Part shown: positions 11,634-46,201 of the stretch, piece by piece | Layout of the letters: the number at the start of each line of letters is the position of its first letter | Position numbering within the stretch: position 1 is the stretch's first letter | Source: an uncultured Alphaproteobacteria bacterium | GTDB taxonomy: Bacteria > Pseudomonadota > Alphaproteobacteria > Acetobacterales > Acetobacteraceae | Direction of reading: 5' to 3' | Length of the DNA: 64,000 nt | Assembly (NCBI GenBank): GCA_963832895.1 | Contig: CAWHVQ010000004.1 | Coordinates: forward strand, 89,507 to 153,506 | Notes under the pieces: model-generated | What the model saw: only the letters and a program-made list of their open reading frames with translations | What the model was told of the DNA's origin: nothing | Database searches by the model: none | Program-made: the position numbers and the translations under genes

Positions 11634-12036
11634 CGCGACGGGCGGGCGGAACTCTGCGAACAGGTCCAGGGTACTGCGCCACCACGGAATCTCCCGTGAG
11701 GAGCGTAATACCTTCAATGGTTGCCTGTGCGATCAGGATACGATCGAACGGGTCCTTGTGGATCGGTGGGAGTAAATCGATCGCAACGACGTGCTCGCTG
11801 GTGATCGCGAGCTCGCCATAGTTGTTGTCGAACAACGCACGCCGCAGCAGTCTCGGATCGACCTGAAAGTCAACACGACCGAGCCCACGCTTGATCGCGA
11901 TCTCCCACAAACTCGCCGCACTGAACAGGAGCGTGTTTTCCGGGTCGTCAAGCAGGTTCCGGGTAGCCGCCTCAATGCGATCTGGCTTGCCGGCCGCCCA
12001 CAGCAGCAGATGTGTGTCGAGCAGCAGCTTCACGTG
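11611..12036 (-). CDS. vapC: PIN-domain toxin VapC
   Basis: GTG start overlapping the reconstructed antitoxin stop (GTGA). VKLLLDTHLLLWAA...SAASLWEIAIK...DPFDRILIAQA...YPGPVRRV. The C-terminus has a ~14-aa tail that overlaps the metZ 3' end. Confidence 0.8.
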   Translation of the reverse strand, partial: HVKLLLDTHLLLWAAGKPDRIEAATRNLLDDPENTLLFSAASLWEIAIKRGLGRVDFQVDPRLLRRALFDNNYGELAITSEHVVAIDLLPPIHKDPFDRILIAQATIEGITLLTGDSVVAQYPGPVRRVPPARRVSRRPAR

Positions 12037-12306
12037 GTGTCGCAGCGGAACAGGCGCGCGATTTCGGCCCTGCCCATCAGGTCGAAATCGTCCGGGTACT
12101 GCGATCTGTCCTGTCATGAACCCCAGGCGCCTGACCTGCCTTGGCAACGGCGCATCGACTGGCACGACCCGCACCAGCGGCCTGCCCGCCTTGGCGATCA
12201 CGAACGGCTCGCCCTTGGCAGCCTGGTCGACGAGGCGCGACAGATGCGTCTTCGCTTCGTGTATGTTCACCGTGCGCACATCCGCCCCCAACTGGACTAA
12301 GTCCAT
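12033..12306 (-). pseudogene. vapB: Phd/YefM- or VapB-type antitoxin, fused in-frame to vapC by a +1 frameshift at GTAC 12096-12099
   Basis: N-terminus (M/V)RTVNIHEAKTHLSRLVDQAAKGEPFVIAKAGRPL. Removing one C from the sense string GCAGTACCCGGA restores ...IAVPDDFDLMGRAEIARLFRCDTT-stop, which overlaps the vapC GTG. Confidence 0.7.
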
Positions 12307-12434
12307 TTAGTCTAGTTCACCGATGATTACAACGCACCCAACCGAACCGACGCGTGCACGACCACAACTCCACTCTACTGGACAACGCCCGTTCTCTCGC
12401 CTTGAATCACCTCACCCAGCGAACCGGTCGTGCC

Positions 12435-12839
12435 ATGGCGGAAGCCTATTCCAAGGTCACTCGCAGAGTCCGCGTCACCGTGCGGTCCTTCTACCTGGAG
12501 GACCAGTCGGAGCCGGACGACAGCCACTTCGTCTGGGCGTATCGCGTGAAGATCGAGAACCAGGGACGCGAGCCGGTGCAGTTGCTCCGGCGCACCTGGC
12601 AGATCACCGACGCGCGTGGACGCACGCAGCACGTGCACGGCGCCGGCGTGGTTGGCGAGCAGCCGCTGCTCGAGCCGGGCGAGAGCTTCGAGTATACGTC
12701 GGGGACGCCACTCGACACGCCGTCCGGCTTCATGGTCGGCGCCTACCACATGGTGGTGCCATCCTCCGGCGAGAACTTCGATGTGGCCATCCCGGCGTTC
12801 AGTCTGGACAGCCCCCACCAGAGCGGTAGGGTGCATTAG
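12435..12839 (+). CDS. apaG: ApaG (DUF525) protein
   Basis: [44 protein letters not shown]...[10 protein letters not shown] is the canonical ApaG sequence. Confidence 0.9.
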
Positions 12840-12940
12840 CCGCCAAACGGGTTGTGCGCCCGCTGGCTCGCCTTATATGCCGACCAGTGGCGTGTGGTAC
12901 GCGCGCCGCTTCCCTCACACCCTCCTGGGAGGATTGCGCG

Positions 12941-15743: not shown

Positions 15744-15752
15744 GCAGAAAGG

Positions 15753-15864
15753 ATTAAACGCAGATGTAGAAGCAGATGCACGTAAAACACGCAAATGGTT
15801 TTGTATCTTTATCGGCGTGTTTTGCGTGCATCTGCTTCTTATCTGCGTTTGAATCTGTCTCCCT
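15753..15864. repeat. palindromic intergenic repeat, copy 1 (40-bp arms, ~32-nt loop)
   Basis: Left arm ATTAAACGCAGATGTAGAAGCAGATGCACGTAAAACACGC. The reverse complement of the right arm is ATTCAAACGCAGATAAGAAGCAGATGCACGCAAAACACGC. AT-richer than its surroundings. It fills the gap between convergent genes and could act as a bidirectional terminator. Confidence 0.8.
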
Positions 15865-15870
15865 TTCTAT

Positions 15871-16632
15871 CTACTCCGCAGCCGTCACGGGCGCATGTTC
15901 GCGAAGGAAGGTGTGTACGTGGCGCAGTGCTTCGGCGGTCTGCTCCTTGGTCTCCTTCCACGGGTAGATACTGACTTCAGCGTTCGGTGCGAGGCGCGCT
16001 GACTCGATGGCGACCGCGTAGGGATGCGCCGGCACGTCATCCGGCAATACCAGGATCGGCGTGTTGCAGGAGCGTACGAAATCGCGCGTCACGGTGAAGA
16101 CGAAATCGGGATTGGAGCGATACATCTTGTTCAGGAAAGCGTCGACCGTCGCCATGGTGATATCGGGCCTGCGCTCGCAGAGCTGCGGGCCCCAGCCCTT
16201 GATGTTGTTCTGATAGAACAGGTCGGGGATCTCCGGACGGAACCCGCTGGGCTGCGCCAGGACGGCGGCGACGATGCGATCCGGTGCACGCTTCAAAAGG
16301 TTCCAGATGAACGGGCCGCCAATGCAGAAGCCCATCACCATGAACTCCCTGATGCCCAGATGGTCCATCAGGCCGAGCTGGTCATCGGCGTAGGCATCCC
16401 ACGGCCGGTCGATCTCGAGCGGACCCGATGACTGGCCGCCGTTGGCGTTGCGCAGGTCCATCGTGATGCAGCGGTACTCGCCCCTGAACTCCTCCATCGC
16501 ATTGAACGGCCCGAAGCCGGTGAGGGAGGAGATGTTCGAATTCAACCCGCCGCCGGGGATGAACAGAACCGGGAAGCCGGACCCGGCCTCTTCGTAGTGA
16601 ATGCGGACGTCGCCTCTTTGATAGAACGGCAT
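15871..16632 (-). CDS. alpha/beta-fold hydrolase
   Basis: 253 aa. Nucleophile elbow MGFCIGG. N-terminus HYEEAGSGFPVLFIPGGG. Confidence 0.85.
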   Translation of the reverse strand: MPFYQRGDVRIHYEEAGSGFPVLFIPGGGLNSNISSLTGFGPFNAMEEFRGEYRCITMDLRNANGGQSSGPLEIDRPWDAYADDQLGLMDHLGIREFMVMGFCIGGPFIWNLLKRAPDRIVAAVLAQPSGFRPEIPDLFYQNNIKGWGPQLCERRPDITMATVDAFLNKMYRSNPDFVFTVTRDFVRSCNTPILVLPDDVPAHPYAVAIESARLAPNAEVSIYPWKETKEQTAEALRHVHTFLREHAPVTAAE

Positions 16633-16656
16633 GACAGTTCCTCCTTTCGGTTGCGC

Positions 16657-17532
16657 TCAGGCTGTTCGCACGAACTTGTCCACGCTGCGGTCTACGGTCA
16701 ATCCGGCGTAGATGTCGCCGCGCGAGTCCACGCCCACGCCGTGCACGTGGCGGCTTTCCATGCGCGCAAGTACGTTGCCTGCCGCGTCGCGCACGCAGAC
16801 ATACGCCGGCTTGCCGCCGTCCTCCTGCTCGGCGATGTAGTAGTTGCCGTCTTTGCCCCGTGTGATGTCGTTCGGGCCGCCCATGCCGGTCCACGCGCCA
16901 AGATAGTCGCCGTCGGGTGAAAAGATCTGGATGCGCTTGTTCGACCGATCCGCGACATACAGCTTGCCGTCGGAATCGAACGCGATGCTGTGCGGCAGGT
17001 GGAATTCTCCTGGCGCATGGCCCGGCGAACCCCATGACGTCACGAGTTCTCCGTCGCTGGTGAAGCGGTGCACACGCGCATTGCGATAGCCGTCGGTCAC
17101 GTAGATATCGCCGTTGGGATGCGGCATCATCTCAGTCGGGTGATTAAACGGTCCCGCCGCACGTTCCGCGAGCCATGGAGACCCTGTGCAGCCGGTGTCG
17201 GAGTGCACGCCGCGCTCGCCCAGTTCCAGCAGGGTCTTGCCGTCCAGCGTGAACGACTTCGCGACCGAGTCCGACCGGTCGGTTGTATATACGACGTCGT
17301 TGACTATCTTCAGGCCATGCGGGTCGGTGACCTCGCCGCTGCCCCAGGCGCCCAGGTACTTGCCGTCGCGATCGAACACCACGACGGGAGGATCCCTGCG
17401 CTGGAAGACATAGACGCGATCCTGTGAATCGGTCGCCACCCGGCTGACCAGCCCGAACCTTTCTCCGCCGGGCAATTTGAGGAAATCGCGTACCAATTCG
17501 TAGGTGTATTCGCCTGTGCCGACTTGTGCCAT
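16657..17532 (-). CDS. NHL-repeat beta-propeller protein (peptidyl-alpha-hydroxyglycine lyase-like)
   Basis: 291 aa. Repeated ...G.F..P..IA.D..G..YV.D... units (GEFHLPHSIAFDSDGKLYVADRSNKRIQIF). Confidence 0.85.
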   Translation of the reverse strand: MAQVGTGEYTYELVRDFLKLPGGERFGLVSRVATDSQDRVYVFQRRDPPVVVFDRDGKYLGAWGSGEVTDPHGLKIVNDVVYTTDRSDSVAKSFTLDGKTLLELGERGVHSDTGCTGSPWLAERAAGPFNHPTEMMPHPNGDIYVTDGYRNARVHRFTSDGELVTSWGSPGHAPGEFHLPHSIAFDSDGKLYVADRSNKRIQIFSPDGDYLGAWTGMGGPNDITRGKDGNYYIAEQEDGGKPAYVCVRDAAGNVLARMESRHVHGVGVDSRGDIYAGLTVDRSVDKFVRTA

Positions 17533-17590
17533 TGCTGTCCTCCTCCCGTGGCCCGCGCGTCGGATGCCGCGCGCACTTCACTGGGCGAGC

Positions 17591-17962
17591 TTACTCCGGC
17601 AGCGCCGTTTGAGATAGCGCACCGGCCAGCATGGCCATGCGTTCCGGGGTAGTGATATTACCGGAAGCCAATCCGCTGATGGTAAAGCCGGCCTGCAGTT
17701 CGAGTACAACGGCGGCCACCGACCGTGCTTCGTCGAGTCGGCCGAGGCGGACCAAAGCCGCCGCGTGCAGGTAGCGCGGCACGCTGAACCGGGGATTCGC
17801 CGCAGACGCCCGGCTCGCGGCACTGACCGCCTCGATGAAATTTCCGACGAAGAAATTCGCATAGGCGAGCCCGACATAGGGCAGATAGATCAGCGGATCG
17901 TACGGACTGAGGCGAATACCGATCCTGGCGTGCTCGATCGCGGTCGCATCCTCGCCCATCCA
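17591..17962 (-). pseudogene. 3' remnant of a TPR-domain (cyclase-associated type) gene
   Basis: Only the last ~120 aa look like protein: ...IEHARIGIRLSPYDPLIYL...NFIEAVSAASRASAANPRFSVPRYLHAAALVRLGRLDEARSVAAVVLELQAGFTISG. Upstream of 17962 the frame is Arg-rich nonsense. Confidence 0.5.
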
Positions 17963-18232
17963 GGCGCGAATGGCACCACAACCGAGAACTGCTGCCACGC
18001 GACGGCGCGCGACGCGATGTTCCGTAATTATCGCGTGGTGTTTCTGTCCGATGCGACGGCCACCTACGATTACCCGGATCGCGGCTACGGACCGATGCCG
18101 AATGCCGACGTTCACCACGCGACTTTGGTCGTACTCGCCGCCTCGACGGCGCATGTGATGTCGGTCGCTGATTTGGGTGCAGGGCTGCCAACTGGCCGCA
18201 TCTCGAGGAACGCGCCTTCACGAGCGGCTTGA
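17963..18232 (+). pseudogene. 3' remnant of an isochorismatase-family hydrolase gene
   Basis: Protein-like only from G-TTTENCCHATARDAMFRNYRVVFLSDATATYD (catalytic-Cys region) to the stop. The N-terminal ~120 aa of the family are missing. It overlaps the 3' end of the decarboxylase gene on the other strand. Confidence 0.55.
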
Positions 18233-19446
18233 GTCCCGGCTGCCGGGAACGGACCGTCGCGCACCTCGACGAGGCGCGCGCGGTCGAAGCCGTTGAACGC
18301 GGTGCGCAGACAGCCGCCATAGGCGCCGAGCTGACCGATCTCGATCCAGTCGCCTTCGGCCACGTCGGCAGGCAGATGGAACGGGCCGCGCATCGCATCG
18401 GCACTGTCGCAGGTCGGCCCGAAGAACGAGAAGCCGATCAACGCATTGGGCGGCGGCGGCCCATTGGGGCGGACAAGCCGCGCCGGATAGCGAAAACCGA
18501 GAGGACCGGCATCCGCCAGAGCGCCATAGATGCCGTCGCTGACATACAGCGAATTGCCGCGCCGATGCTGCACCTGCACGACCACAGACGCGCCACCGGC
18601 GACGAGAGCGCGGCCGGGCTCGGCCCAAAGCCGCGCGTCGGAAAGGCCCAGGCGCTCGAAGCCTGCGTCGATTTCCGCGAGGTATGCGCCGAGCGGAGGT
18701 ACTTCTACGTCCGGATAGCGTACAGGAAAACCACCGCCGACATCGATCACCTCGATCGTCGCGCCGGCATCTCGGATCACGTCGCCGACCAAAGCCAGCG
18801 CTTGGCGCCAGGCGAGCGGCTCGAGGCATTGCGAACCGACATGGAAGCTCAGCCCGAGACGCACCGCATGCGGGCGCGCCGCGCGCAGCAACTCCGCAGC
18901 CGGCCCCGGCTCTGCGCCGAACTTGCCTGACAGATCCAACACCGCCGGGCCCTTCGGCATGGCAAGGCGGACGATCAGGCCGAGCTCACCGGCAGTACCC
19001 GTCGCGGCTGTTTCATGCCGGATCTTCGCCAGCTCCTCCGTGCTGTCGAGCACGAAGTCACGCACACCGTGCCGCTGCCACGCCTCGCGGATGGCGCCAC
19101 GCGACTTGACCGGGTGCATGAAATGGATCGAGGCATTGGGAAACATCTGGCGCACCAGCGCGATCTCGCCGATCGACGCGCAGTCAAAATGCGTGACGCC
19201 GCCGGCGTGGACGGCACGCAGCATCGCGGGCTCTGGGTTGGCTTTCACCGCGTAGAGCACATCGCCCGGAAACACCTCGGAGAAATCGCGCACGGCCGCC
19301 TCAACCGTTGCCGGACGCAGGCAATGCATCGGCTCTTCGGGCCGCTCTATGGCGATCAGTTCATCGACCGAAGGCAACGGCGTTGCGGCGCCGGGGAAGC
19401 GGCGGCGCAGAGGCGACACGGCAGTGCGGACGCGCACATGGTTCAT
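18112..19446 (-). CDS. type III PLP-dependent ornithine/lysine/arginine decarboxylase
   Basis: ...VLYAVKANPEPAMLRAV..., HVGSQC, GGGFPV, EPGRALV and CDSAD motifs. It has an unusual ~40-aa C-terminal tail that overlaps the isochorismatase remnant. Confidence 0.85.
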   Translation of the reverse strand: MNHVRVRTAVSPLRRRFPGAATPLPSVDELIAIERPEEPMHCLRPATVEAAVRDFSEVFPGDVLYAVKANPEPAMLRAVHAGGVTHFDCASIGEIALVRQMFPNASIHFMHPVKSRGAIREAWQRHGVRDFVLDSTEELAKIRHETAATGTAGELGLIVRLAMPKGPAVLDLSGKFGAEPGPAAELLRAARPHAVRLGLSFHVGSQCLEPLAWRQALALVGDVIRDAGATIEVIDVGGGFPVRYPDVEVPPLGAYLAEIDAGFERLGLSDARLWAEPGRALVAGGASVVVQVQHRRGNSLYVSDGIYGALADAGPLGFRYPARLVRPNGPPPPNALIGFSFFGPTCDSADAMRGPFHLPADVAEGDWIEIGQLGAYGGCLRTAFNGFDRARLVEVRDGPFPAAGTQAAREGAFLEMRPVGSPAPKSATDITCAVEAASTTKVAW

Positions 19447-19787
19447 TCCAGGAAACCTCGCAGGCAGGAGGAACACAGACGGCGCCGCCGCGCGACAATG
19501 CCGCGGCGACGGACTCAGATGGTGCTGCGAGGACTTCGCATCGCCGCAAACCGGTCAGCAAACATAGGCAACTCCCTAACGACCCCGGCCCCACCATTGG
19601 ACCGGCCAGACGAAAAGGACGCGTTACGTCGTTGCTGTGCCCCTCAGATGCTCAGCGCGGGGCTCGCGGCACGTGCGATGCGTCAGGCGTCGCTCAACCA
19701 CGCGGGTCGAGCAGCGAACGCATATGGGGACTGCGACGGTGGAAGAGGTATGCGATGATCGATGGTGTGGCGACTGCTGTGGTCATA

Positions 19788-20703
19788 TCATCGACGCTGC
19801 GCGGAGCCGGCCAGCGCGAGATATTCCCACGCAACGGTCGCCGCTGCCAGCGCGGTGATTTCGGCAACGTCATAGGCCGGAGCGACCTCAACGACATCCA
19901 TGCCGGCGAACGCCACGCCACGCAGCCGGCGCAGGATCGCCTGCACCTGCCATGACGCCAGGCCACCGATCTCCGGCGTGCCGGTGCCGGGCGCGAAGGC
20001 CGGGTCCAGCGCATCGACGTCGAAGCTGAGATAGGCCGGCGCCTCTCCGACCACATCGCGGATGCGTCGCGCCACCGCATCGGGACCTAGCGCGTGCACG
20101 TCCTGCGCGGTCAGTACCGGTGACCCCGTGACCGATGGTCCAGTCCCACACCTCGCGCTGCACCGGCGAGCGGATGCCGATCTGGATCATGCGCCGCGGC
20201 TCGACCAGCCGCTCCTCGATCGCATGATAAAATACCGATCCGTGCGCGTAGGGCTGACCGAAATTGTCCGGCCAGGTGTCCACGTGCGCGTCGAAATGCA
20301 CCAGCCCGAGGCTGCCGCCGATCCGGCGCGACAGCGCTCGCAGCAGCGGCAGGGTGATGCCGTGCTCGCCGCCCAGGGCAATCAGATGGCCAAGCCCGGC
20401 CGCCTGCTGCTCAATCAACTGCAGGCTGGCTGGTATGTCGCCGAGGGCAAGCCGGAGATCGCCGATGTCGGCGACGTTCAGTGCCGCGGGCTCGATCCAG
20501 AATTCGGGATGCGCGCCATCGGTCAGCATCCGGCTGGCCCGCCGGATCGCGTGCGGGCCGTCGCGCGCGCCGGCACGGTTGGTGGTGCCGATGTCCAGCG
20601 GCACGCCCGCGACGATAAACTCCGTGGCCGGATCGCTGCAGGCGATCCCGAGAAACCCCGGGGCCGTGGCGAAAGTGGGAACCGCAGCGGGGATCAGCGT
20701 CAT
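19788..20703 (-). pseudogene. speB: agmatinase (ureohydrolase), +1 frameshift at GTAC 20114-20117
   Basis: The N-terminal ORF has GGEHGITLPLL and HFDAHVDTW. The C-terminal ORF has LSFDVDALDPAFAPGTGTPEIGG. Deleting one C from plus-strand CAGTACCGGT joins ...IGHGVT|VLTAQDVHALGPDAV.... Confidence 0.85.
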
Positions 20704-20706
20704 TGT

Positions 20707-21855
20707 CTACGGCCGCACCAGGGCGATAACGATCTCGGCCAGGATCAGGACAATGATCAGGAACTCCATCAGTTCCGTCCGGCTGGCCAAACTCTCATCG
20801 TACAGCGCCGAATACGTGTCGCGGATGATCGCAAGCTTGCGCTCCACCGCGGCATTCACCTCCGGCACGCGGAACAGTTCCAGCGCCGCCGCGTAGATCC
20901 GCGCGAGATACACGTCCTCGGTCACCTGCAATGCATTGTCCACGCGCTCGGTCAGTTCGGTGACTTCGGCGACCAATGTGTGCAGCCGGCGCGCGAGGCC
21001 GGCAAATCGACGCGAAGCCAGCAACGTGCGCGCGCGTCGCGCCTTCGCCACCAGGTCGTACATGCGCGGCAGTTCATCGTCCAGCAGCTCGTCGTAGTAA
21101 CGCATCTCCAGAAGCTGGGCATTGGCCACCTCGAGCACGTCCAGGACGTCGGAGTCACCGCGCGGCTCATAGACGAATGCGCGGTCCCAGGTCAGCACCA
21201 CCAGATCGTCGGTGTAATATGAGAAGCGCTGGCGCAACAGCTCATGGCGCGCGCCATCCGAGAGCGGACGCTGCTCACCGGACAGCAACGGCACCAGATC
21301 GACGCTGTCGCGCAATGCCGCCGCGGTCAGCTTCGGCTCAAACGTATGCACGACACCGATCAGGTAATCCTCCTGGACCCTCGAGTCCTCGGCGCGGTTC
21401 ATTGCCGGCCCGAGCAGCTCGCGCACCCGCCTCAGCAGGCGATCCCACATGTCGTCGGCCGCCGTGACGCTGCGATCGACCGCATTCAACTGTCGGACAA
21501 AATCAGCCCAGGTCACATTCACGATCGGAACGCGCAACGCAATCGTGACTGCGCCGAAGTCATAGAGCCGGACCGTCGCGACCGCCGCCACATCCTCGCC
21601 TTCCAGCGCCAGCACGACCGGTTCGAGTTCAAGCGCCAGCGGCGGCACACCAAAGGCCATCGCTTTCGGCGGAGTCGCACTGAGCCGGATGCGACGTGAC
21701 GTCCGTGCCTGGTCGGCGAGCAGCCCCTCGGCACGTGCGAGGTCTATCGCGTAGGCCACGTCGAACAGCCGCAGCGCCACCACGGCACCAACCGCCACCG
21801 TCGGCTCCGATTGGCGTAGCTGCCCGGACAGATAGCTGTCGGCTTCGTTGCCCAT
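20707..21855 (-). CDS. conserved hypothetical protein with C-terminal membrane anchor
   Basis: Long ORF with good coding appearance and coiled-coil-like middle. The last 22 aa are hydrophobic (LMEFLIIVLILAEIVIALV). The start was chosen at MGNEADSY (21855) so that it does not overlap nudC. The stop is 3 nt from the agmatinase start. Confidence 0.65.
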   Translation of the reverse strand: MGNEADSYLSGQLRQSEPTVAVGAVVALRLFDVAYAIDLARAEGLLADQARTSRRIRLSATPPKAMAFGVPPLALELEPVVLALEGEDVAAVATVRLYDFGAVTIALRVPIVNVTWADFVRQLNAVDRSVTAADDMWDRLLRRVRELLGPAMNRAEDSRVQEDYLIGVVHTFEPKLTAAALRDSVDLVPLLSGEQRPLSDGARHELLRQRFSYYTDDLVVLTWDRAFVYEPRGDSDVLDVLEVANAQLLEMRYYDELLDDELPRMYDLVAKARRARTLLASRRFAGLARRLHTLVAEVTELTERVDNALQVTEDVYLARIYAAALELFRVPEVNAAVERKLAIIRDTYSALYDESLASRTELMEFLIIVLILAEIVIALVRP

Positions 21856-21935
21856 GGCCGGTGTGTAGCACGGCGGTTGCCGCTCCGCCCGCCACATGGC
21901 ACCGTCCGCCGGACCCCAAGCAGCGAGCGCTTTCC

Positions 21936-22863
21936 GTGACATTCATCCTTGCCAGCCGCCCGAACGTCTATTCATCGAGCCCGCTCGACCGCGTCGGGAC
22001 CCGGCGCGAAGACGCGGCGTGGATCGAACAGCGGCTGCATGACCCCGACACGCTGTTTGTGCCGGTGTGGCGCAATCGCAACCTGGTGCGCGGGATGAAC
22101 GATGGCGCACCAGAAGCTGTGTTCATCTCCGGCGAGATGGCACAGACATTGCGCATGCAGGGCGGCCCCTGGGCATTTCTCGGGCTGCACGACGAGCTGG
22201 CGATCTTCGCGATGGATATCAGCACGGCGGAAGACCCGGTGCCGTTGCTGTCGGAGGACCTGGGAACGTTCGTCGATCTGCGTTCGGTGGGCTGGGGGGT
22301 GGCGCGGCCGGAGGCCTCGATCCTGGCGCACGCGCGCGGGTTGCTGCACTGGCGTGCGCGCCATCGATTCTGCGGCGTCTGCGGCAGCGTGTGCGAGGCG
22401 CGCAGTGCGGGCCACGTGATGGTCTGCACCGCCTGCGAGGTGCAGCACTTCCCGCGCACCGATCCCGCCGTGATCATGCTGGTGACGCGCGACGATCACG
22501 CGCTGCTCGGCCATTCGCAGCGCTTCCCGCGCTCCAGCATGTACCTCCACCCTGGCCGGCTTCGTGGAGCCGGGAGAAACACTGGAAGAGGCGGTCCGCC
22601 GCGAGGTGTTCGAGGAATCCGGCATCAAAGTGGGCGACGTGCAATACCACTCAAGTCAGCCCTGGCCGTTTCCCGGCAACATCATGCTCGGCTTCTATGG
22701 CGAAGGACTGAGCGAGGCCATCACCATCGATCCGGAAGAGATGCTGGATGTGCGCTGGTTCTCGCGCGAGCAGATCCGCGACAGCGAGGCGAACGGCTTC
22801 CTGCTTCCGCGTGCCGACAGCATCGCACGGCGGCTGATCGAGGACTGGATGGCGACGGAGTGA
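21936..22863 (+). pseudogene. nudC: NADH pyrophosphatase (Nudix), +1 frameshift at GTAC 22541-22544
   Basis: Zn-ribbon CGVCGS...CTAC in the first frame. Nudix box GFVEPGETLEEAVRREVFEESGI in the second. Deleting C22545 from ATGTACCTCC gives ...SSMY|STLAGFVEPGE.... Confidence 0.85.
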
Positions 22864-23123: not shown

Positions 23124-23126
23124 CCG

Positions 23127-23573: not shown

Positions 23574-23574
23574 C

Positions 23575-24476: not shown

Positions 24477-24523
24477 GCCCACAGGTTCGGCGAATGGCGC
24501 GCCGAACCTGATTTGCTCGCGGG

Positions 24524-26181: not shown

Positions 26182-26183
26182 CC

Positions 26184-31035: not shown

Positions 31036-32026
31036 TTGGCTGCCGGTCCGCATCGACACCTGGCGGCAAAGCAGCGCTGGCACCCGATCGAGGTCGCGTT
31101 TTGGCTGGCGACCTTGCTGCCCTTCGTGCTGGTACCCACCTACCTCACGTTGGCAAGCCAGATCGCGATCACCGCGATCTTTGCAGTCTCGCTCGATCTC
31201 ATCATGGGCTATGCCGGGCTGGTCTCGCTCGGTCACGCGGCGTATTTCGGTCTCGGCGCCTACACCGCGGGGCTGATCGCCAAGGCCGGCTGGGGAGAAC
31301 CGTTCTCCGGCTTGGTGCTCGCGGGGCTAGCGGCCGGCTTGTTCGGCTATCTCACCGGCTTCCTGGTGGTGCGCGTCCGCCACCTTGCGCTGATCATGAT
31401 CACACTCGGCATCGGCCTGCTGCTCTACGAGGTGGCGAACCGCGAGGACTGGCTCACCGGCGGCAATGACGGCCTGCAGGGCGTGACGATGTGGCCGCTG
31501 TTCGGACGGTTCGACTTCGATCTCTACGGCTACACCGCCTACGCCTACGCGCTGGCAATTCTGCTGCTGGTCGTGCTGGCGGCGCGACGCCTGGTGCACT
31601 CGCCGTTCGGACTGTCCCTGCGCGCCATCCGCGAGAACGAGCGCCGCATGCCGGCAATCGGCGCGCCGAGCCGCGCCCGGCTGCACGCTATCTATACAAT
31701 CGCCGCTACGGTCGCCGGTCTCGCCGGAGGGCTGCTTGCCCAGACCACGCAGTTCGTCTCGCTCGGGGCGCTCAGTTTCGAGCGGTCTGCGGAACTGGTC
31801 ACCATCCTGGTGATTGGCGGGACAGGACGTCTCTATGGCGGCGTCATCGGCGCCATTGTCTACCTGGTGGCGCGCGACCGGCTCTCCGGCATGAACCCGC
31901 AGTACCTGGTATTTCTGGATCGGGCTGATGCTGATCGGCGTGGTGCTGTTCCTGCCGAACGGCGTCCTGGGCGGACTCGCCAAGGCCACGGCGAAATTTG
32001 TGCCTTCCGCAACCCCCGCCTCATGA
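31036..32026 (+). pseudogene. livM: branched-chain amino-acid ABC permease (LivM-type), +1 frameshift at GTAC 31902-31905 that fuses it to livG in the ORF track
   Basis: Deleting C31906 from CAGTACCTGG restores ...NPQY|WYFWIGLMLIGVVLFLPNGVLGGLAKATAKFVPSATPAS-stop (TGA 32024-32026). That stop overlaps the livG ATG in an ATGA arrangement. Confidence 0.85.
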
Positions 32027-38000: not shown

Positions 38001-38256
38001 CAGGAACATCGACCGTCATCTCATGGGCACGTCCCGCTACGACACTGTCATGCCGGGCTTCCAGTACGACCAGGCGCAGCCGCAGCCCAGCCCCTGCGGA
38101 CGCCACCACGCGCATTTCCTCCCCGCCGCCGCCCGCGCCAAAACCTTCGATGAGGCCGTGTCGGCGCTGCGGGCGGACGAGGCCCACGAGGAGTCCAGCC
38201 GCTGTCTGCGCTGTGACATCCGAGAAATGACGGCGCTTGCCGTCTCCCGTCGTTAA
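35089..38256 (+). CDS. hoxF: HoxF-type diaphorase (Trx-like 2Fe-2S + NuoF FMN/NADH/4Fe-4S core) fused to a GltD/NfnB-like FAD/NAD(P)H oxidoreductase module
   Basis: NuoF motifs are RGRGGAGFSTGVKF, CNADEGDPGAYMNR and SESCGKCTPCRVG. From about aa 564 (nt ~36775) come the GltD-type clusters CRAGVCQELAVAPCENSCP and GRVCQHPCEHRCRR, a FAD fold VAIVGAGPAGLTTAFYL...EPGGML, and an NAD(P)H fold VVIIGGGNAAIDCART. It is a single uninterrupted 1055-codon frame. Confidence 0.85.
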   Translation: MTPIRDASAFNAVRDAGLAKLLPSRPRIAVGMGTCGTGNGSESVYHAFADAIGKRGLDVQLVQTGCFGFCAEEPLVNVWNPGEPLIMLHRVRPDHVSQILDCLTGNAFPQALVLCKIEQWDHVTAQLDYGSGLPDIPAWNAVPFFSGQKKIVLRNCGLIDPSDIEEYIGIGGYQSLHKVLHDNAPEAVNAQIKLAKLRGRGGAGFSTGVKFEYLRRATGERKYLVCNADEGDPGAYMNRNELESDPHSLLEGMAIGGYVTGATQGIIYVRAEYPLAVHRLAVAIEQARTYGLLGANILGCGFNFDIELVEGAGAFVCGEETALISSLEGMSGRSRPRPPYPAQKGLWGHPTNINNVETWFNIPPIVAKGPEWFTSIGSVASPGTKVFSLVGKIRNTGLVEMPLGTPLSKFVYDAGGGTMPGHSVKAVQTGGPSGGCIPHDMLDTPVDFESLGKLGSIMGSGGMVVMDDDNCMVDVARYFVEFTRSESCGKCTPCRVGLDKALRTLTRITKGQGREEDLAELDTLGRMIRDTSLCGLGQSAPNSVLTALRHFRHEFEDHIRAKRCRAGVCQELAVAPCENSCPIHMNIPRFLQLYKENRLEDAFEAVIFDNPLPATTGRVCQHPCEHRCRRQTVDEPINMREVHRVIADTILLSDRFDAMVDRIVARRHPSTGKKVAIVGAGPAGLTTAFYLALLGHEVVVFNSHAEPGGMLRFALPAYRLPREVLDREIEIIRRLGVNFVLNSSIGSDISLSDLEAKSDAVFLSLGTWQETDVRVPGNELTGVFGALHFLEAEARGEAVQLGQRVVIIGGGNAAIDCARTVIRMGASATVIYRRERKDMPAISEEVEAAEDEGVRIIFLASPHRIVGEAGAVKSIEVTKTLLGAFDTSGRRRPIDTGEVLNVSCDSVILAVGESVDRDFCRGTGLEVTRNGMLEVDRYAPTTSRESIFAGGDFVTGASNVTTAMGWGKDAARNIDRHLMGTSRYDTVMPGFQYDQAQPQPSPCGRHHAHFLPAAARAKTFDEAVSALRADEAHEESSRCLRCDIREMTALAVSRR

Positions 38257-38275
38257 GGAGCCATTCGTGCCTCAG

Positions 38276-38977
38276 CAGGTCTCAATCCGCATCGACAGCC
38301 AGCTCTGTACCGCCACCGAGGGACAGAACATCTTCCAGGTGGCGCATGACAACGGCAAATACATCCCGTCGCTATGTCATCTGGAAGGCCTCAGTTCGCC
38401 TGGGTCCTGCCGTTTGTGCCTAGTGGAGATCGCGGGCGTCGGCCGGCTGCTGCCCGCCTGCACGACACCGGTGCAGAACGGCATGTCGGTCAGCACCACC
38501 TCCGACAGCCTCGCGCACAATCGGCTGATGGCACTCGAGCTGCTGTTCATCGAGCGCAATCACATCTGCGCCGTGTGTGTCTCGAACGGCCACTGCGAAT
38601 TGCAGTCTCTGGCGCAGACCCTTGGGCTCACCCATGTCAACCTGCCGTACAATTTCCCGCGTCTGCCGGTCGACGTCTCGCATCCTCGCTGGGTGCTCGA
38701 CCACAATCGCTGCATCCTCTGCTCACGCTGCGTGCGCGTCTGCGACGAGATCGAGGGCGCGCATGTGTGGGACATCGCCGCGCGCGGAATCAATTCGATG
38801 CTCGTCGCCGAGCTTAACCTGCCATGGGGCGAGGCGCCTTCCTGCACCAACTGCGGCAAATGTGTACAGGTCTGTCCGACCGGCGCGCTGGTGGAGAAAG
38901 GCCTTGCCGTTGAAGAGATGACCAAGCGCAACAGTGTCATCACGGAACTCGCCGCGAAGCGAAGTGCCGGTTCATGA
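38276..38977 (+). CDS. hoxU: diaphorase Fe-S subunit HoxU (NuoG N-terminal-like)
   Basis: GTG start 6 nt after AAGGAG. 2Fe-2S motif CHLEGLSSPGSCRLCLVEI. 4Fe-4S motifs CILCSRCVRVCDE and CTNCGKCVQVCPTGA. Confidence 0.85.
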   Translation, partial: QVSIRIDSQLCTATEGQNIFQVAHDNGKYIPSLCHLEGLSSPGSCRLCLVEIAGVGRLLPACTTPVQNGMSVSTTSDSLAHNRLMALELLFIERNHICAVCVSNGHCELQSLAQTLGLTHVNLPYNFPRLPVDVSHPRWVLDHNRCILCSRCVRVCDEIEGAHVWDIAARGINSMLVAELNLPWGEAPSCTNCGKCVQVCPTGALVEKGLAVEEMTKRNSVITELAAKRSAGS

Positions 38978-39507
38978 CAAAGCCACGACTGGCCACGATG
39001 TGGCTCGACGGCTGTTCGGGCTGCCACATGTCGCTGCTCGATCTGGACGAGGCTCTCATTACCATCTCGCAGCGTGTCGACCTGGTTTACAGCCCGCTGG
39101 TTGACGCTCGCGAATATCCCCACGACGTCGATGTCGCTCTGGTCGAGGGGGCGGTCAGCACCGAGGAGGATCTGGAGAAGATCCGCCAGGTCCGCGAGCG
39201 CACGCGCATCCTGGTGGCACTCGGTGACTGTGCGACCACCGCCAACATCTCGGGCGCACGCAACCCGATCCCACTGAAAGACCTGTTCGAGAGCATCTAC
39301 GTGGCAGGCGCCGACGTGGACAAAGGCATCCCCGCTGACCCCGCACTTCCTGTGCTGTTGAAACACGCCGTTCCGCTGCACGACGTTGTCAAGATAGACC
39401 TGCACGTGCCGGGATGCCCGCCGTCCGCCCCAACGATCCTGTTCGTCCTCAACGAGCTTCTCGAGGGCCGCATCCCCGATCTCAGGGCCAGGACGCGCTT
39501 CGGCTGA
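38974..39507 (+). CDS. hoxY: [NiFe] hydrogenase small subunit HoxY
   Basis: WLDGCSGCHMSLLD, ALGDCA and VPGCPP. The ATG overlaps the hoxU stop (ATGA). Confidence 0.9.
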   Translation: MTKPRLATMWLDGCSGCHMSLLDLDEALITISQRVDLVYSPLVDAREYPHDVDVALVEGAVSTEEDLEKIRQVRERTRILVALGDCATTANISGARNPIPLKDLFESIYVAGADVDKGIPADPALPVLLKHAVPLHDVVKIDLHVPGCPPSAPTILFVLNELLEGRIPDLRARTRFG

Positions 39508-39517
39508 GGAGCCCACC

Positions 39518-40936
39518 ATGACGACCATTGTTATCGACCCGGTCACCCGCATCGAGGGCCACGCAAAGATCACCATTCACCTTGATGACAATGGCAAAGT
39601 CGTGGACACCGCCTTCCATGTCACTCAGCTTCGCGGGTTCGAAAAATTCTGCGAGGGACGGCCGTTCTATGAAATGCCGTCGATCACCGCACGCATCTGC
39701 GGCATCTGCCCGATCAGCCACCTGCTGACCTCGGCCAAGGCCTGTGAAGCCATCATGAGCGTGCGCATCCCGCCAACGGCGGCGAAGCTTCGCGAAATCA
39801 TGCATTGCGGGCAGGTTATCCAGTCCCACGCATTGAGCTTCTTCCATCTCTCGGCCCCCGACCTGCTGCTCGGCTTCAACTCCGATCCGACACGGCGAAA
39901 CCTGGTCGGCGTCATCGAAGACCATCCGCAGCTTGCCAAGGACGGGATCGCGCTGCGCAGATTCGGCCAGCAGGTTATCGCGGGCCTCGCAGGCGAGCGC
40001 ATCCATCCGTCATGGACAGTCCCCGGCGGCGTCAACGCGCCATTGGACCAAGCAGTCCGCGACCGCATCCTGGCCGCCGTGCCGGAGGCAAAGGCTCTGG
40101 CATTGCGCACTTTGGGCTTCTTCAAGGACGTGGTTGACCAGTTCGGCGATGAGATCGCTGTGTTCGGCTCGATGCCCACCATGTACGCCGGACTAGTCGA
40201 TGACCACGACAACATGCAGCTCTACGACGGCGGCCTGCGCTTCGTCGACGCCGAGGGCGAGACTGTGGTCGATCGCATGGCAGCCGAGGACTACCAGCAG
40301 TACATCGGCGAGGCGACGGTGCCACGGTCTTTCCTGAAGGCGCCATACTTCAAGCCGCGCGGCTATCCGGATGGGACGTACCGCGTCGGGCCTCTCGCAC
40401 GGCTGAATGTCGTGGCGCGCTGCGGCACCCAAGCGGCGGATGCCGAGTTCGCGGAGTACCACGAGAGATTCGGCAAGGTCGTGCAGAGCTCCTTCCACTT
40501 CCATTACGCGCGCCTGATCGAGATCCTCTACTGCATCGAGCGGATGGAGGCACTGCTGAACGATGCGGCGATCCTCGATCGCCATGTGCGCGCGCATGCC
40601 GGAGTGAACGCCTTGGAGGGCATCGGCATGGCCGAGGCACCGCGAGGCGTTCTGACGCATCACTACAAGGTTAACGAGGACGGCGCTATCGTCTGGGCAA
40701 ACCTCATCATCGCGACCGGGCACAACAATCTATCCATCGGCCGGAGCATCGGCCAAGTCAGTCGCCACTACATCGATGGCAAGCGGATTACCGACGGGAT
40801 GCTCAACCGCGTGCAGGCGGTGCTGCGGGCTTATGATCCATGCCTGAGTTGTTCAACGCATGCCGGCGGTCAGTATCCCGTGGAACTTCAGCTGCTGGAT
40901 GCCGACGGCACCATGTTGGATTCGGTTCGCACCTGA
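39518..40936 (+). CDS. hoxH: [NiFe] hydrogenase large subunit HoxH (group 3-like)
   Basis: N-terminus VTRIEGHAKI. L1 motif RICGICPISH. C-terminal L2 motif DPCLSCSTHA followed by a 22-aa extension, which is the expected protease substrate. Confidence 0.9.
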   Translation: MTTIVIDPVTRIEGHAKITIHLDDNGKVVDTAFHVTQLRGFEKFCEGRPFYEMPSITARICGICPISHLLTSAKACEAIMSVRIPPTAAKLREIMHCGQVIQSHALSFFHLSAPDLLLGFNSDPTRRNLVGVIEDHPQLAKDGIALRRFGQQVIAGLAGERIHPSWTVPGGVNAPLDQAVRDRILAAVPEAKALALRTLGFFKDVVDQFGDEIAVFGSMPTMYAGLVDDHDNMQLYDGGLRFVDAEGETVVDRMAAEDYQQYIGEATVPRSFLKAPYFKPRGYPDGTYRVGPLARLNVVARCGTQAADAEFAEYHERFGKVVQSSFHFHYARLIEILYCIERMEALLNDAAILDRHVRAHAGVNALEGIGMAEAPRGVLTHHYKVNEDGAIVWANLIIATGHNNLSIGRSIGQVSRHYIDGKRITDGMLNRVQAVLRAYDPCLSCSTHAGGQYPVELQLLDADGTMLDSVRT

Positions 40937-42261: not shown

Positions 42262-42367
42262 ATTAAACGCAGATACAAGAAGATGCACGCGGATGCACGC
42301 GGATTGCCCTCGAGCGGGGGTTCGGCCTGCGGCTTGCGACGAACAATCTGCGTGTTTTGCGTGCATC
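42262..42367. repeat. palindromic intergenic repeat, copy 2 (rearranged/degenerate)
   Basis: It shares ATTAAACGCAGAT-(A)CAAGAAGATGCACGC with the copy-1 left arm and GCGTGTTTTGCGTGCATC with the copy-1 right arm. It has an internal tandem GATGCACGCG GATGCACGCG and an unrelated ~55-nt centre. Confidence 0.6.
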
Positions 42368-43736: not shown

Positions 43737-44345
43737 ATGCCCGAACCTGAACGCGTCGATCGGCGCCGTGCCGCACTGATTGCTTACGATGTCTGCCGGC
43801 GCGCGCTGACGCCGCCGGACCCTGCACGGAGAGCCACGATGCGCCCCGTGCTCGATGCCTGGGTGCAGATGATCGCGGCCGCGCGTGCGGTTGGCGTGCC
43901 GGTGATCTACACGACCCCCGTAAGCCGCGCCGATGGCGCAGACGTCGTCATGCTGCCGACCGATCTTTCGGCGGAAACCGGTGTGCCGCCACTTACCAAC
44001 GGTATCGAAGGCACGGCGGAGGCCGGTTTTCCCGACGAGATCGCGCCGCGGCCGGAGGACTATGTCTTCCTCAAACGCCGCCCGAGCGCGTTTTACGGAA
44101 CGGGCGTCGCCGAGCTCCTTCACATGCTGCGACGCGACATCATTATCATCGGCGGGGGCGCTACCAATCGCGGTGTCGAGACGAGCGTCCGCGAGGCATT
44201 CAATCTCGACATTGCGTCTGTCGTGGTGCGCGAGTGCTGCTGGGGCAGCGACACTGCCGCCCACGCCTACAGCCTGGACAAGGCGATGAAGATGTACGCG
44301 CGCATCCGGAGCCTCGAGCAGGTCGCGGCGATGCTGCGGGGGTGA
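43737..44345 (+). CDS. isochorismatase-family cysteine hydrolase
   Basis: RAALIAYDVC...PSAFYGTGVAELLHMLRRDIIIIGGGATNRGVETSVREAF. An intact paralogue of the remnant at 17963-18232. Confidence 0.85.
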   Translation: MPEPERVDRRRAALIAYDVCRRALTPPDPARRATMRPVLDAWVQMIAAARAVGVPVIYTTPVSRADGADVVMLPTDLSAETGVPPLTNGIEGTAEAGFPDEIAPRPEDYVFLKRRPSAFYGTGVAELLHMLRRDIIIIGGGATNRGVETSVREAFNLDIASVVVRECCWGSDTAAHAYSLDKAMKMYARIRSLEQVAAMLRG

Positions 44346-44505
44346 GGCGGTCCGGCCTGGCTCCCCGGCCGTCGCCTCTGTCAACCTGCGAAACCCGACG
44401 CGGCGCGGAGCGCTCGTAAGAGACGCTGGCAGAAGCGGCCACCTTCTTGCATGCTGCGGTGCAGCACGCCCGCACCGCAACGTTGCACAAACGAGATCCG
44501 ACACA

Positions 44506-45807
44506 ATGGCCAAGCGTCAGTTCCACCTCTCCTGGTTCCTCTCGCAGGGCTATGGTCCGAAGACCTGGCGAGGAAATTGGCCGGGCAGCGACGTGGCGCG
44601 CTGGATGATGCCCGATCTGTTTCTCGACCTCGCCCGCGGGCTGGAGCGTGCCTGCTTCGATTACCTCATCATCGAGGATTCCTCGATGGTGCCGTGTACG
44701 TTTCGGGACTCGCACGACACCTATCTGCGCTACGCCGCCAGCACGCCCAAGCTCGACCCGGCCGTGCTGGTCCCTTTCCTCGCGCAGGTTACCAGACACC
44801 TTGGGCTGATCCCGACGCTTTCGGTTACCGAGTACCCGCCTTTTCTGCTCGCCAGGCTGGTCAACTCGCTCGACCACGTGACCGAGGGGCGCATCGGCTG
44901 GAACTGCGTCACCAGCAGCAATGACGGCGCGGCGCAGAACTACGGCCATCTGCGCCAGCCGCCGCACGATGAGCGCTACGAACTCGCCGATGAATTCGCG
45001 GACCTGGTTACCAGGCTGTGGGACGCCTGGGAGCCTGAGGCCGTGGTGCTCGACCGTGACACGCCGATGTTCGCCGACGGGGGGAAGGTCCATCCGGTGA
45101 ATTTCGAGGGCAAGTACTTCCGCTGTCGCGGCCCGCTGAATGCACCTCGCTCGCCGCAGGGGCGTCCGCCGATCTGCCAGGCGGGTGGCTCGCAGCGCGG
45201 CCAGGAATTCGCCGCCCGTTGGGCCGATACAATCATCACCGATGCCGGCAGCGTCGAGGCCATGAAGGCCTATCGAGCCAACGTCCGTCGGCGTGCCGTT
45301 GCTGCCGGCCGCGACCCCGACGGGGTGAAGGTGCTTTTCCTGGCCTACCCGCTGGTCGACACGACGATGGAGGCCGCGCATGACCGGCGGCGCCTGATGC
45401 ATGAGGACGCCAACCGGCATCTCGACATGCAGCTCTCAACCATGTCGCGTCTGACCAACATCGACTTCTCGAAATTCGATCCGGACGAGCCGCTTCCCGA
45501 GTTGCACACCGATGGCCATCAGTCGTCGCTGGCCAAGTGGATCGGCAAGACGCCGCGCGAGGTCGCGGTGAGCCAGTCCACCAAAATGGGCATCGACTTC
45601 ACCGGAACGGTCGATCACGTGGCGGGCATGATGCAGGAGATCATGGAGGAAGTCGGCGGCGACGGGTTCCTGTTCTTCAATGCCTATTTCGACCGGCGCT
45701 ATATCATGGAGGTGTGTGACGGGCTGGTGCCGGCGTTGCAGCGCCGCGGACTGACGCGGACGCGCTACGCCCACAAGCACTTCAAGGACAACCTGATGGA
45801 ATTCTAA
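44506..45807 (+). CDS. LLM-class flavin-dependent monooxygenase (NtaA/SnaA/DszA family)
   Basis: MAKRQFHLSWFLSQGYGPKTWRG... is the typical family N-terminus. 433 aa. Confidence 0.9.
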   Translation: MAKRQFHLSWFLSQGYGPKTWRGNWPGSDVARWMMPDLFLDLARGLERACFDYLIIEDSSMVPCTFRDSHDTYLRYAASTPKLDPAVLVPFLAQVTRHLGLIPTLSVTEYPPFLLARLVNSLDHVTEGRIGWNCVTSSNDGAAQNYGHLRQPPHDERYELADEFADLVTRLWDAWEPEAVVLDRDTPMFADGGKVHPVNFEGKYFRCRGPLNAPRSPQGRPPICQAGGSQRGQEFAARWADTIITDAGSVEAMKAYRANVRRRAVAAGRDPDGVKVLFLAYPLVDTTMEAAHDRRRLMHEDANRHLDMQLSTMSRLTNIDFSKFDPDEPLPELHTDGHQSSLAKWIGKTPREVAVSQSTKMGIDFTGTVDHVAGMMQEIMEEVGGDGFLFFNAYFDRRYIMEVCDGLVPALQRRGLTRTRYAHKHFKDNLMEF

Positions 45808-45852
45808 ACCTGCGGGCTCGGCGCGGTTGCGCTGGCAGGGCTACGGGGCCTT

Positions 45853-46201
45853 TCAGTATCCAGGATAGCCATAGCCGTACGGCGCATAGTAGGGCGGAGG
45901 ATAGGTACGGAGGCGGATAGTAGACCGGCGGGGGGACGTAAACCGGCGGTGCCACCCCGACGAAGACTCCGCCGCGCCAGCAACAGCTCCAGCGGCCACC
46001 GTGCCATCCCCAGTTGCCGCCATTCCAGCCGCCGCCATGCCAAGCACCGCCGCCATGCCAAGCACCGCCACCGTGCCAGCCACCTCCACCACCACCATGC
46101 CAGCCGCCATGCCAGTCGGCACGTGCGAGCGGCGCCGTGAGGATCAGCAGGCCGACAACAGCGAAAACGGCACCCGCGATGCGGATCGGATTGCGTCGCA
46201 T
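45853..46201 (-). pseudogene. secreted Gly/His/Trp- and Pro/Tyr-rich repeat protein, +1 frameshift at GTAC 45905-45908
   Basis: AAGGAG-N7-ATG. Signal peptide MRRNPIRIAGAVFAVVGLLILTAPLARA, then (WHGGG[A])n, then PPVYVPPPVYYPPPY. Deleting one C from sense CCGTACCTATCC restores ...PPPY|YPPPYYAPYGYGYPGY-stop. Confidence 0.7.
46017..46110. repeat. degenerate 15-18-bp tandem repeats inside the Gly/His-rich gene
   Basis: GCCGCCATGCCAAGCACC occurs twice perfectly (46031-46048 and 46049-46066), flanked by diverged units (GCCACCGTGCCAGCCACC and others). The units encode WHGGGA. Confidence 0.7.

Follow-up and report, generated by a model that had tools for sequence, protein, structure and literature searches.

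GTAC-associated single-base frameshifts in a contig of an uncultured Acetobacteraceae species are very probably long-read consensus errors

Results

Five genes are interrupted by an extra base at GTAC

The window (the whole 64-kb stretch of DNA that was analysed) comes from an uncultured Acetobacteraceae species of soil and carries five unrelated genes whose reading frames are interrupted by the same lesion, a single extra base at the palindrome GTAC (Table 1). All five lesions were located where the initial annotation had placed them, and each amounts to GTAC+C on either the plus or the minus strand, with the base run growing from C to CC at four sites and from CC to CCC at one. At site 1, the plus strand reads GGTAC at 12095-12099, which is GTACC on the minus strand. 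The proposal that the extra base is a C 3' of GTAC has to be amended for the agmatinase gene, a minus-strand gene in which the lesion in sense is a G 5' of GTAC. The choice of one particular C as the extra base in vapB is likewise ambiguous, as it lies within a CCC run. Codons fall as GTA-CCC in vapB and as G-TAC-C in nudC, livM and the Gly/His-rich gene. In nudC the lesion falls between ...MY and STLAGFVEPGE, immediately 5' of the Nudix box. The agmatinase gene adjoins an Orn/Arg decarboxylase gene, and the Gly/His-rich gene specifies a Gly/His/Pro/Tyr-rich secreted protein. GTAC was counted 99 times across the window, and an extra base is found at about 5% of these sites. A motif longer than GTAC (e.g. 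AGTACT) was considered by eye and rejected: A is frequent upstream but T, C and G occur there too, leaving GTAC as the core.

Table 1. Frameshift sites, affected genes and window-private substitutions (window coordinates)
Feature	Position	Strand	Description
Site 1	12094..12099	-	GTAC 12096-12099, then CC in minus sense (single C in relatives); extra base 12094 or 12095, in vapB
vapB	12030..12279	-	PhdYefM antitoxin; 82 aa once restored
Site 2	20114..20118	+	GTACC; extra C is 20117 or 20118; host gene on minus strand
Agmatinase/arginase-family gene	19788..20703	-	304 aa once restored
Site 3	22541..22545	+	GTACC; one extra C in nudC
nudC	21936..22863	+	NUDIX-like, Zn ribbon and NUDIX; 308 aa once restored
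Site 4	31902..31906	+	GTACC; one extra C in livM
livM-type ABC permease gene	31036..32026	+	BPD_transp_2; 329 aa once restored
Site 5	45904..45908	-	GGTAC on plus strand, GTACC in minus sense; one extra base
Gly/His-rich small protein gene	45853..46201	-	115 aa once restored; without Pfam family
Sixth private frameshift	8028..8033	-	GA[A]TTC; GATTC in all relatives (GANTC/CcrM-type site)
Private G-to-A, G of GATTC (GANTC)	33807	+	G in 10/10 other assemblies
Private G-to-A, G of GACTC (GANTC)	37192	+	Within 1055-aa HoxF-like gene; G in 8/8 others
Private G-to-A, G of GACTC (GANTC)	39878	+	In [NiFe]-hydrogenase large-subunit (HoxH) gene span; G in 7/7 others

Removal of one base restores conserved proteins

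Six-frame translation placed a frame switch exactly at each of the five sites. When intact orthologues from GCA_049792535.1, a 99.7%-identical genome, were aligned by tblastn, each gave two HSPs in different frames abutting at the site, except for the Gly/His-rich gene, for which an N-terminal HSP alone was reported (residues 1-100, ending at 45902). Deletion of a single base produced one full-length HSP per gene with 96% identity for VapB and 100% for agmatinase, NudC, LivM and the Gly/His-rich protein, in agreement with the claim that such a deletion recovers conserved proteins. Pfam architectures are complete in the relatives' orthologues. Left unrepaired, vapB runs in frame into vapC (11614-12033) as a 231-aa ORF (11611-12306), livM is fused to livG in a 580-aa ORF (31036-32778), and nudC is read through into an ORF of 475 aa. 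The expectation that these genes are probably functional and are miscalled by annotation is borne out. In vivo, vapB and the agmatinase, nudC, livM and Gly/His-rich genes are almost certainly undamaged.

Genes of this kind could also be expressed despite a real extra base, through a programmed +1 shift of the ribosome, or slippage during transcription, at a TAC-C or CCC-G signal. The proline codon context CCC-G, well known to be prone to +1 shifts, is present in vapB, and the extra C is on the sense strand at four of the five sites. We nevertheless consider this reading almost beyond belief and rejected programmed +1 frameshifting on the evidence of orthologues without the extra base, which is conserved neither within the species nor in its sister species. 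The codon phase in vapB is inconsistent with the xxG-TAC-C phase elsewhere, the agmatinase lesion is G+GTAC in sense, and slippage would need a longer homopolymer than any found at the sites.

The extra bases are private to the assembly

For comparison with the window, 27 stretches, later extended to 37, were taken from 12-15 assemblies made independently for this species. At 99.7-99.97% identity, the extra base was missing from all same-species assemblies covering site 1 (5/5), site 3 (7/7), site 4 (8/8) and site 5 (2/2: GCA_049792535.1 and Logan SRR28023564), and from 6/7 of those covering site 2, where it also occurs in ENA ERZ25039497, an error-prone assembly. Apart from this one shared site, the extra bases are private to the assembly; they are bound to the motif and are not heritable. 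In total, the window has six private 1-bp indels, five of which are at GTAC. The probability of at least five of six falling at GTAC by chance is 1.7e-10 to 1.7e-15, a spread that reflects how strictly "at GTAC" is defined. In a DNA alignment with a 99.7%-identical contig, sites 1-4 are the sole 1-bp indels in 10705-31944, and site 5 is the sole one in the aligned interval 34496-55808. Only two 1-bp differences were found in longer runs, neither of them private to the window: A4 versus A5 at 9266 is common to two assemblies, and a G-run difference at 62107 is in ERZ25039497.

These distributions bear on a genuine sequence-specific mutational process, raised as an option in the initial annotation. 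On this reading, the lesions would be strain-specific mutations from a GTAC-targeted process (e.g. damage by a PabI-type restriction glycosylase with error-prone repair) and would have created real pseudogenes. The recurrence of one lesion in unrelated genes could be read in this way, as could site 2 if it were taken alone as a variant common to two assemblies, and a GTAC-specific base-excision restriction enzyme family is known (PMC10273834). However, PabI-type enzymes excise adenine, and this does not predict that a C would be gained on the 3' side. Moreover, the interval 15752-31944 has only 2 SNPs yet 3 indels at GTAC, and the broken genes have undergone no further decay. The absence of the lesions from relatives, together with the 96-100% identity of the restored proteins to intact orthologues, led us to reject pseudogenisation. 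The lesion class is, furthermore, restricted to assemblies with 'contig_N' names and absent from JGI, NCBI and Logan contigs, and the resulting density of frameshifts would inactivate about one gene in ten. Taken together, these observations make a real mutational process very improbable.

Errors at GANTC accompany those at GTAC

The sixth private indel, which the initial annotation overlooked, is an extra A at 8029, outside GTAC. It interrupts a cyclase/TPR gene of 653 aa (7118-9080) and leaves two ORFs, 7118-7966 and 7992-9143. The site is a GANTC, and CcrM methylates GANTC in Alphaproteobacteria. Of the eight substitutions private to the window, three turn the G of GANTC into A (P = 1.2e-6; Table 1). 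GANTC, a motif methylated in the taxon, displays in this window the documented G-to-A signature plus a +A insertion, and it serves as a positive control. Counting both motifs, frameshifting errors reach about 94 per Mb in the window and are concentrated at these two motifs of 4-5 bp.

The same error class recurs in other assemblies

Assemblies of the same species from ENA with 'contig_N' (Flye-style) names have 1-bp insertions too, located at GTAC and GANTC sites other than those hit in the window. At positions where the window itself is clean, insertions at GTAC were found at window positions 1093, 1454, 54695, 59322, 59324 and 62112; those at GANTC were found at 17428, 19512, 25136, 54854, 55916, 59310 and 62127. 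Among five high-identity ENA assemblies, 12 of 17 1-bp events are at GTAC or GANTC (P = 6e-17). Four assemblies that might have inflated or blurred this enrichment were left out of it: ERZ25039525 (98.5-99.4% identity, with many scattered indels) and the more divergent ERZ25039493 (95.4%), ERZ25039552 and ERZ25039572 (both 87.6% in the listed segment). No private 1-bp indels were seen in three JGI samples, the NCBI genome and two Logan assemblies, in which the only indels are repeat-unit polymorphisms of 3, 7, 10 and 27 bp. Insertions at GTAC are stochastic, in that the affected sites vary by assembly, and some recur (1093 and 20117, in two assemblies each).

Within GTDB, the closest genomes are MAGs of Microflora Danica (MFD), for which Nanopore reads alone were assembled with metaFlye and polished in a single Medaka round (PMC12313526). 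In four sister-species MAGs the frame is kept at sites 2 and 3, and at the site 2 position GTAC itself is missing. In the sister-species MFD MAG L029, both frame breaks are at GTAC. Across 80 loci in related GTDB genomes, GTAC-linked frame breaks were seen in this closest sister species alone. Several assemblies made independently for the species thus share this error class with a sister species.

If the basecaller or polisher mishandled GTAC because of sequence context and independently of methylation, the result would also be artefacts, and these would then be uninformative on DNA modification. Such a bias would fit with our finding no DNA methyltransferase in the window among the Pfam families of genes called across it in relatives, and with our finding nothing specific on GTAC errors or on insertion-type methylation errors in the literature on Nanopore methylation errors. 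On the other hand, GTAC is a common 4-mer, and insertion at about 5% of sites as a general property would leave hundreds of indels per genome, while R10.4.1-only assemblies of other bacteria are reported to have indels comparable to those of short-read-polished ones (PMC11610603). The restriction of GTAC frame breaks to the closest sister species and their co-occurrence with errors at a motif methylated in Alphaproteobacteria also argue against such a bias, and we regard it as unlikely.

Discussion

A motif-bound consensus error as the best explanation

The absence of the extra bases from other assemblies, the same lesion elsewhere in ENA and the G-to-A changes at GANTC within the window strongly favour the other option of the initial annotation, a systematic base-calling or consensus error. 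We conclude with high confidence that all five +1 frameshifts arose in the consensus of a long-read metagenome assembly and do not belong to the organism's DNA. The window assembly was most likely produced from Oxford Nanopore R10.4.1 reads of native DNA with Flye and Medaka and without short reads.

How such errors might arise can be outlined as follows. In this species, both strands of the GTAC palindrome probably carry a modification. Following the read direction, the basecaller would often render such a site as GTAC with one C too many. Reads of opposite strands would then put the extra base on opposite sides, giving GTAC+C or G+GTAC in plus-strand coordinates. Through what we infer to be a vote between strands, the insertion would prevail in the consensus only where coverage or the balance of strands happens to tip in its favour, which is the case at a minority of sites, and affected GTAC sites would differ between assemblies. 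Modification of GTAC in this lineage, to which the error pattern points, is probable, and it is the sole biological inference from the data, an indirect one. That modification in a clade of soil Acetobacteraceae comprising the window species and at least one sister (L029) gives a Nanopore +1 insertion in place of the usual substitution is a more specific proposal, and one we hold to be unlikely. If it were true, the error map would be a footprint of a clade-wide epigenetic mark, and an insertion-type error might mean that this mark is unusual or bulky and not ordinary 6mA, 4mC or 5mC.

The frequency of GTAC was also considered, with avoidance of the motif as a proxy for a restriction-modification system of the RsaI, PabI or HpyAXII kind. 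Its Markov observed/expected ratio in the window is 0.83, the third lowest among the 16 four-base palindromes and a mild depletion (0.40 for CTAG).

Consequences for annotation

The vapB, agmatinase, nudC, livM, Gly/His-rich and cyclase/TPR genes should not be annotated as pseudogenes or fusions. At the error density of this window, about one in ten genes would be broken, pseudogene counts would be inflated, and chimeras like the vapB-vapC and livM-livG ORFs would be produced. Affected genes would be recovered by polishing that takes motifs into account, or by annotation that tolerates frameshifts wherever a candidate methylation motif occurs. Although their biological novelty is low, these results are a data-quality warning for users of Nanopore-only MAG catalogues.

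Comparison with known systems

The lesions resemble long-read homopolymer indels in being single-base events that disrupt frames and leave ORFs fused or split; they differ in that they follow GTAC and not run length. Systems modifying GTAC are known in M.PabI and M.HpyAXII, which generate GTm6AC (PMC10273834). Neither a methyltransferase nor a restriction gene of such a system lies within the 64-kb window. An enzyme of this type would provide the symmetric GTAC modification that the error pattern implies.

For GANTC, the counterpart is the CcrM system: the source organism is alphaproteobacterial, and this motif holds the sixth frameshift, the three G-to-A changes and many errors of sister assemblies. 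The ccrM gene itself is absent from the window, and the motif is used here as an internal positive control.

A close precedent is provided by methylation-induced errors of R10.4.1 data (Liu et al. 2024, PMC11610603; Lohde et al. 2024, PMC11610573). These too affect a subset of instances of short, specific motifs, survive Medaka polishing and are missing from short-read data; strand-specific G-to-A errors persist after polishing with both Medaka and Racon (PMC11610603), and the window has G-to-A changes typical of them at methylated GANTC. The errors described there are, however, mainly C-to-T and G-to-A substitutions, and GTAC is not mentioned among the motifs (PMC11610603, PMC11610573), whereas a frameshifting insertion of 1 nt dominates in the window.

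Reading frames switch at five GTAC sites

We located an extra base at each of the five GTAC sites listed in the initial annotation, among 99 such sites in the window (G+C content 64.6%), and six-frame translation placed the frame switches exactly there (see table). When one base was removed per site, every gene gave a single full-length tblastn match. The repaired agmatinase, NudC, LivM and Gly/His-rich proteins were 100% identical to orthologues and VapB 96%, confirming the claim that a single-base deletion restores conserved proteins. Two details of that annotation needed amendment: the agmatinase site stood but its orientation did not, the gene being on the minus strand, and the vapB lesion held but which C is extra is ambiguous within a CCC run. 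At the chimeric ORFs, adjacent genes share 4 bp (GTGA/ATGA), and +1 errors therefore yield plausible-looking chimeras, in which vapB is joined in frame with vapC, livM with livG, and nudC runs through its downstream neighbour.

The Gly/His-rich gene encodes a small, secreted-looking protein (115 aa). Its N-terminus is signal-like, its tail reads PPPYY, and it contains WHGGG repeats. It matches no Pfam family and is 100% conserved in the NCBI relative.

Positions of lesions, affected reading frames and other features in the window
Feature	Position	Sequence or structure	Frame switch	Other assemblies of the species
Site 1, vapB	12095-12099	plus strand GGTAC (GTACC in minus sense)	...GQIAVP / DDFDLMGRAEIARLF	extra base missing from 5/5
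Site 2, agmatinase	20114-20118	GTACC on plus strand; gene on minus strand		extra base missing from 6/7
Site 3, nudC	22541-22545	GTACC on plus strand	...RSSMY / STLAGFVEPGETLEEAVRREVFEESG	extra base missing from 7/7
Site 4, livM	31902-31906	GTACC on plus strand	...GMNPQY / WYFWIGLMLIGVVLFLPNGV	extra base missing from 8/8
Site 5, Gly/His-rich gene	45904-45908	plus strand GGTAC (GTACC in minus sense)	...YYPPPY / YPPPYYAPYGYGYPGY (stop)	extra base missing from 2/2
Sixth indel, extra A	8029 (8028-8033)	GA[A]TTC		GATTC (GANTC) in 5/5 relatives
Cyclase + TPR gene	7118-9080 (-)	split into ORFs 7118-7966 and 7992-9143
vapB-vapC chimera	11611-12306 (-)	231 aa
nudC chimera	21696-23123 (+)	475 aa
livM-livG chimera	31036-32778 (+)	580 aa
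Gly/His-rich gene	45853-46201 (-)
G-to-A at G of GANTC	33807	TC just before		G in all others
G-to-A at G of GANTC	37192	TC just before; in HoxF-like gene span		G in all others
G-to-A at G of GANTC	39878	TC just before; in HoxH gene span		G in all others
GTAC insertions	1093, 1454, 54695, 59322, 59324, 62112			ENA (1093 in two assemblies)
GANTC insertions	17428, 19512, 25136, 54854, 55916, 59310, 62127			ENA
10-bp repeat unit	42282-42301	GATGCACGCG x2		x1 in two
7-bp repeat unit	33545-33558	GGGTGCC x2		x1 in three
27-bp insertion	27559			one JGI contig
CCA unit, Gly/His-rich gene	46085			one JGI contig
[NiFe]-hydrogenase cluster	34559-40936 (+)

The extra bases are private to the window's assembly

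The comparison set comprised 37 stretches from about 15 assemblies: ENA ERZ2503xxxx assemblies with contigs named 'contig_N', three JGI metagenomes, two Logan assemblies and an NCBI genome. Private indels were counted against high-identity assemblies only; for private substitutions, a position had to be covered in two or more other assemblies. We found six private 1-bp indels in the 64-kb window, five of them at GTAC sites; six random 1-bp insertions would place at least five at GTAC with a probability of 1.7e-10 to 1.7e-15, according to how 'at GTAC' is defined. The sixth, absent from the otherwise correct initial tally, is an extra A at a GANTC motif that splits a 653-aa adenylate/guanylate-cyclase + TPR gene. 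Three of the eight private substitutions are G-to-A changes at the G of GANTC (P = 1.2e-6).

A 123-kb contig of NCBI GCA_049792535.1, found by exact-protein look-up, spans the entire window and is about 99.7% identical to it. It carries intact genes for PhdYefM (82 aa) and PIN (140 aa), Arginase (304 aa), NUDIX (308 aa), BPD_transp_2 (329 aa) and an unnamed 115-aa protein. In a MAFFT alignment of positions 10705-31944 to this contig there were 61 substitutions, and 1-bp indels occurred only at the four claimed sites; within 15752-31944 there were only 2 substitutions but 3 GTAC-site indels. Site 5 is the sole 1-bp indel in 34496-55808. These intact copies, and the full-length products obtained after one-base removal, agree with the proposal that the genes are probably functional in vivo. 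Programmed frameshifting at the GTAC sites is excluded, as the extra base is unconserved, codon phase varies between sites and the agmatinase lesion is antisense.

The soluble [NiFe]-hydrogenase cluster has an unusually large diaphorase subunit (1055 aa), which combines NuoF-like domains (Complex1_51K, SLBB, NADH_4Fe-4S) with Fer4_20 and Pyr_redox_2 (GltD-like); its gene is followed by HoxU-, HoxY- and HoxH-like genes.

The same lesion class recurs at other motif instances

In same-species ENA 'contig_N' assemblies, 1-bp insertions occur at other GTAC sites, ones at which the window has no extra base, and also at GANTC, where several are of the GA[A]NTC type seen at 8029. Of 17 such events in the five ENA assemblies of high identity, 12 are at GTAC or GANTC (P = 6e-17). 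ERZ25039497 has the extra base of site 2 and none of the window's other sites, and the fraction of GTAC sites with an insertion is similar in both (5/99 in the window, 6/99 in ERZ25039497). JGI, NCBI and Logan contigs contained zero private 1-bp indels, only 3-, 7-, 10- and 27-bp repeat-unit polymorphisms, and the repeat-unit differences in the table are probably real within-species length polymorphisms. That the motif instances differ per assembly, with some recurrence, and belong to one assembly style indicates a systematic near-threshold consensus error, not descent; by these comparisons the GTAC lesion is not inherited.

The initial annotation had offered systematic error at a modified motif and a genuine sequence-specific mutational process as alternative causes. 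The former is supported by lesions that are private and motif-bound, with other motif instances affected in other 'contig_N' assemblies. A GTAC-targeted mutational process is not supported: apart from site 2, also present in ERZ25039497, the lesions are private to the window's assembly, the broken genes show no additional decay, the lesion class is missing from assemblies not of the 'contig_N' style, and the implied load would be about 94 frameshifts per Mb.

ERZ25039525 contig_240798 (loci L009 and L019) and ERZ25039493 (locus L116), from the same or a closely related population, display many scattered, motif-independent 1-bp indels and many split genes, and look like low-coverage long-read consensus. 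Gene fragmentation thus differs widely between samples in these metagenome assemblies.

Possible origin of the GTAC insertions

GANTC is methylated by CcrM in Alphaproteobacteria, and the miscalls at GANTC therefore serve as an internal positive control, indicating that modified motifs are miscalled in the window's assembly. Native methylation causes strand-specific R10.4.1 miscalls, mainly C-to-T and G-to-A (PMC11610603; see also a 2026 preprint), with read accuracy of only 54-65% at such sites; these errors persist after Medaka and Racon polishing and vanish in amplified DNA (PMC11610603). GTm6AC is the product of known enzymes, among them M.PabI and M.HpyAXII (PMC10273834). The 64-kb window contains no methyltransferase gene, and GTAC is only weakly avoided in it (O/E = 0.83). 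We infer that GTAC may also be modified in this species, and that, in the direction of the read, the basecaller may be prone to follow GTAC with an additional C. As GTAC is palindromic, plus- and minus-strand reads would put the extra base on opposite sides of it. Such strand-dependent placement would explain both orientations (on the plus strand, three GTAC+C and two G+GTAC) and why only about 5% of GTAC sites have the insertion in the consensus. A context bias at GTAC that is independent of modification is improbable and hard to square with how accurate for indels R10.4.1 assemblies are reported to be in other bacteria, and with the co-occurring GANTC errors.

The closest GTDB species representatives are Microflora Danica (MFD) MAGs of uncultured Alphaproteobacteria, and farther relatives are labelled Acetobacteraceae. 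MFD MAGs derive from Nanopore-only data assembled with metaFlye, followed by a single Medaka round, and the paper's binning-workflow comparison names an r1041 (R10.4.1) model (PMC12313526). Their contigs are named 'contig_N', as are those of the ENA assemblies compared here, and the window's own platform was presumably Nanopore. In four sister-species MAGs, with nucleotide identity of about 89-90%, the reading frame is intact at sites 2 and 3, and site 2 reads GCAC, not GTAC. Six conserved genes compared over 80 related GTDB loci gave 11 frame-switch junctions, of which 10 occur in MFD MAGs, and both junctions in one sister species (L029, MFD05521.bin.1.2) are at GTAC. Extra bases beside their own GTAC were seen in sister-species MFD MAGs, in L029 near window-equivalent positions 18479 and 22646 and in L038 at 18484, inside ornithine decarboxylase and nudC genes. 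This suggests that the GTAC-linked error, and perhaps with it the modification, is common to the clade.

Taken together, these sequence comparisons support the following: 1) the five GTAC frameshifts are a sequencing artefact whose general type is known; and 2) the genes are almost certainly intact in vivo. GTAC itself is probably modified. The practical value lies in caution when annotating Nanopore-only MAGs. Within this type of artefact, insertions at GTAC have been documented less, and the biological novelty is low.
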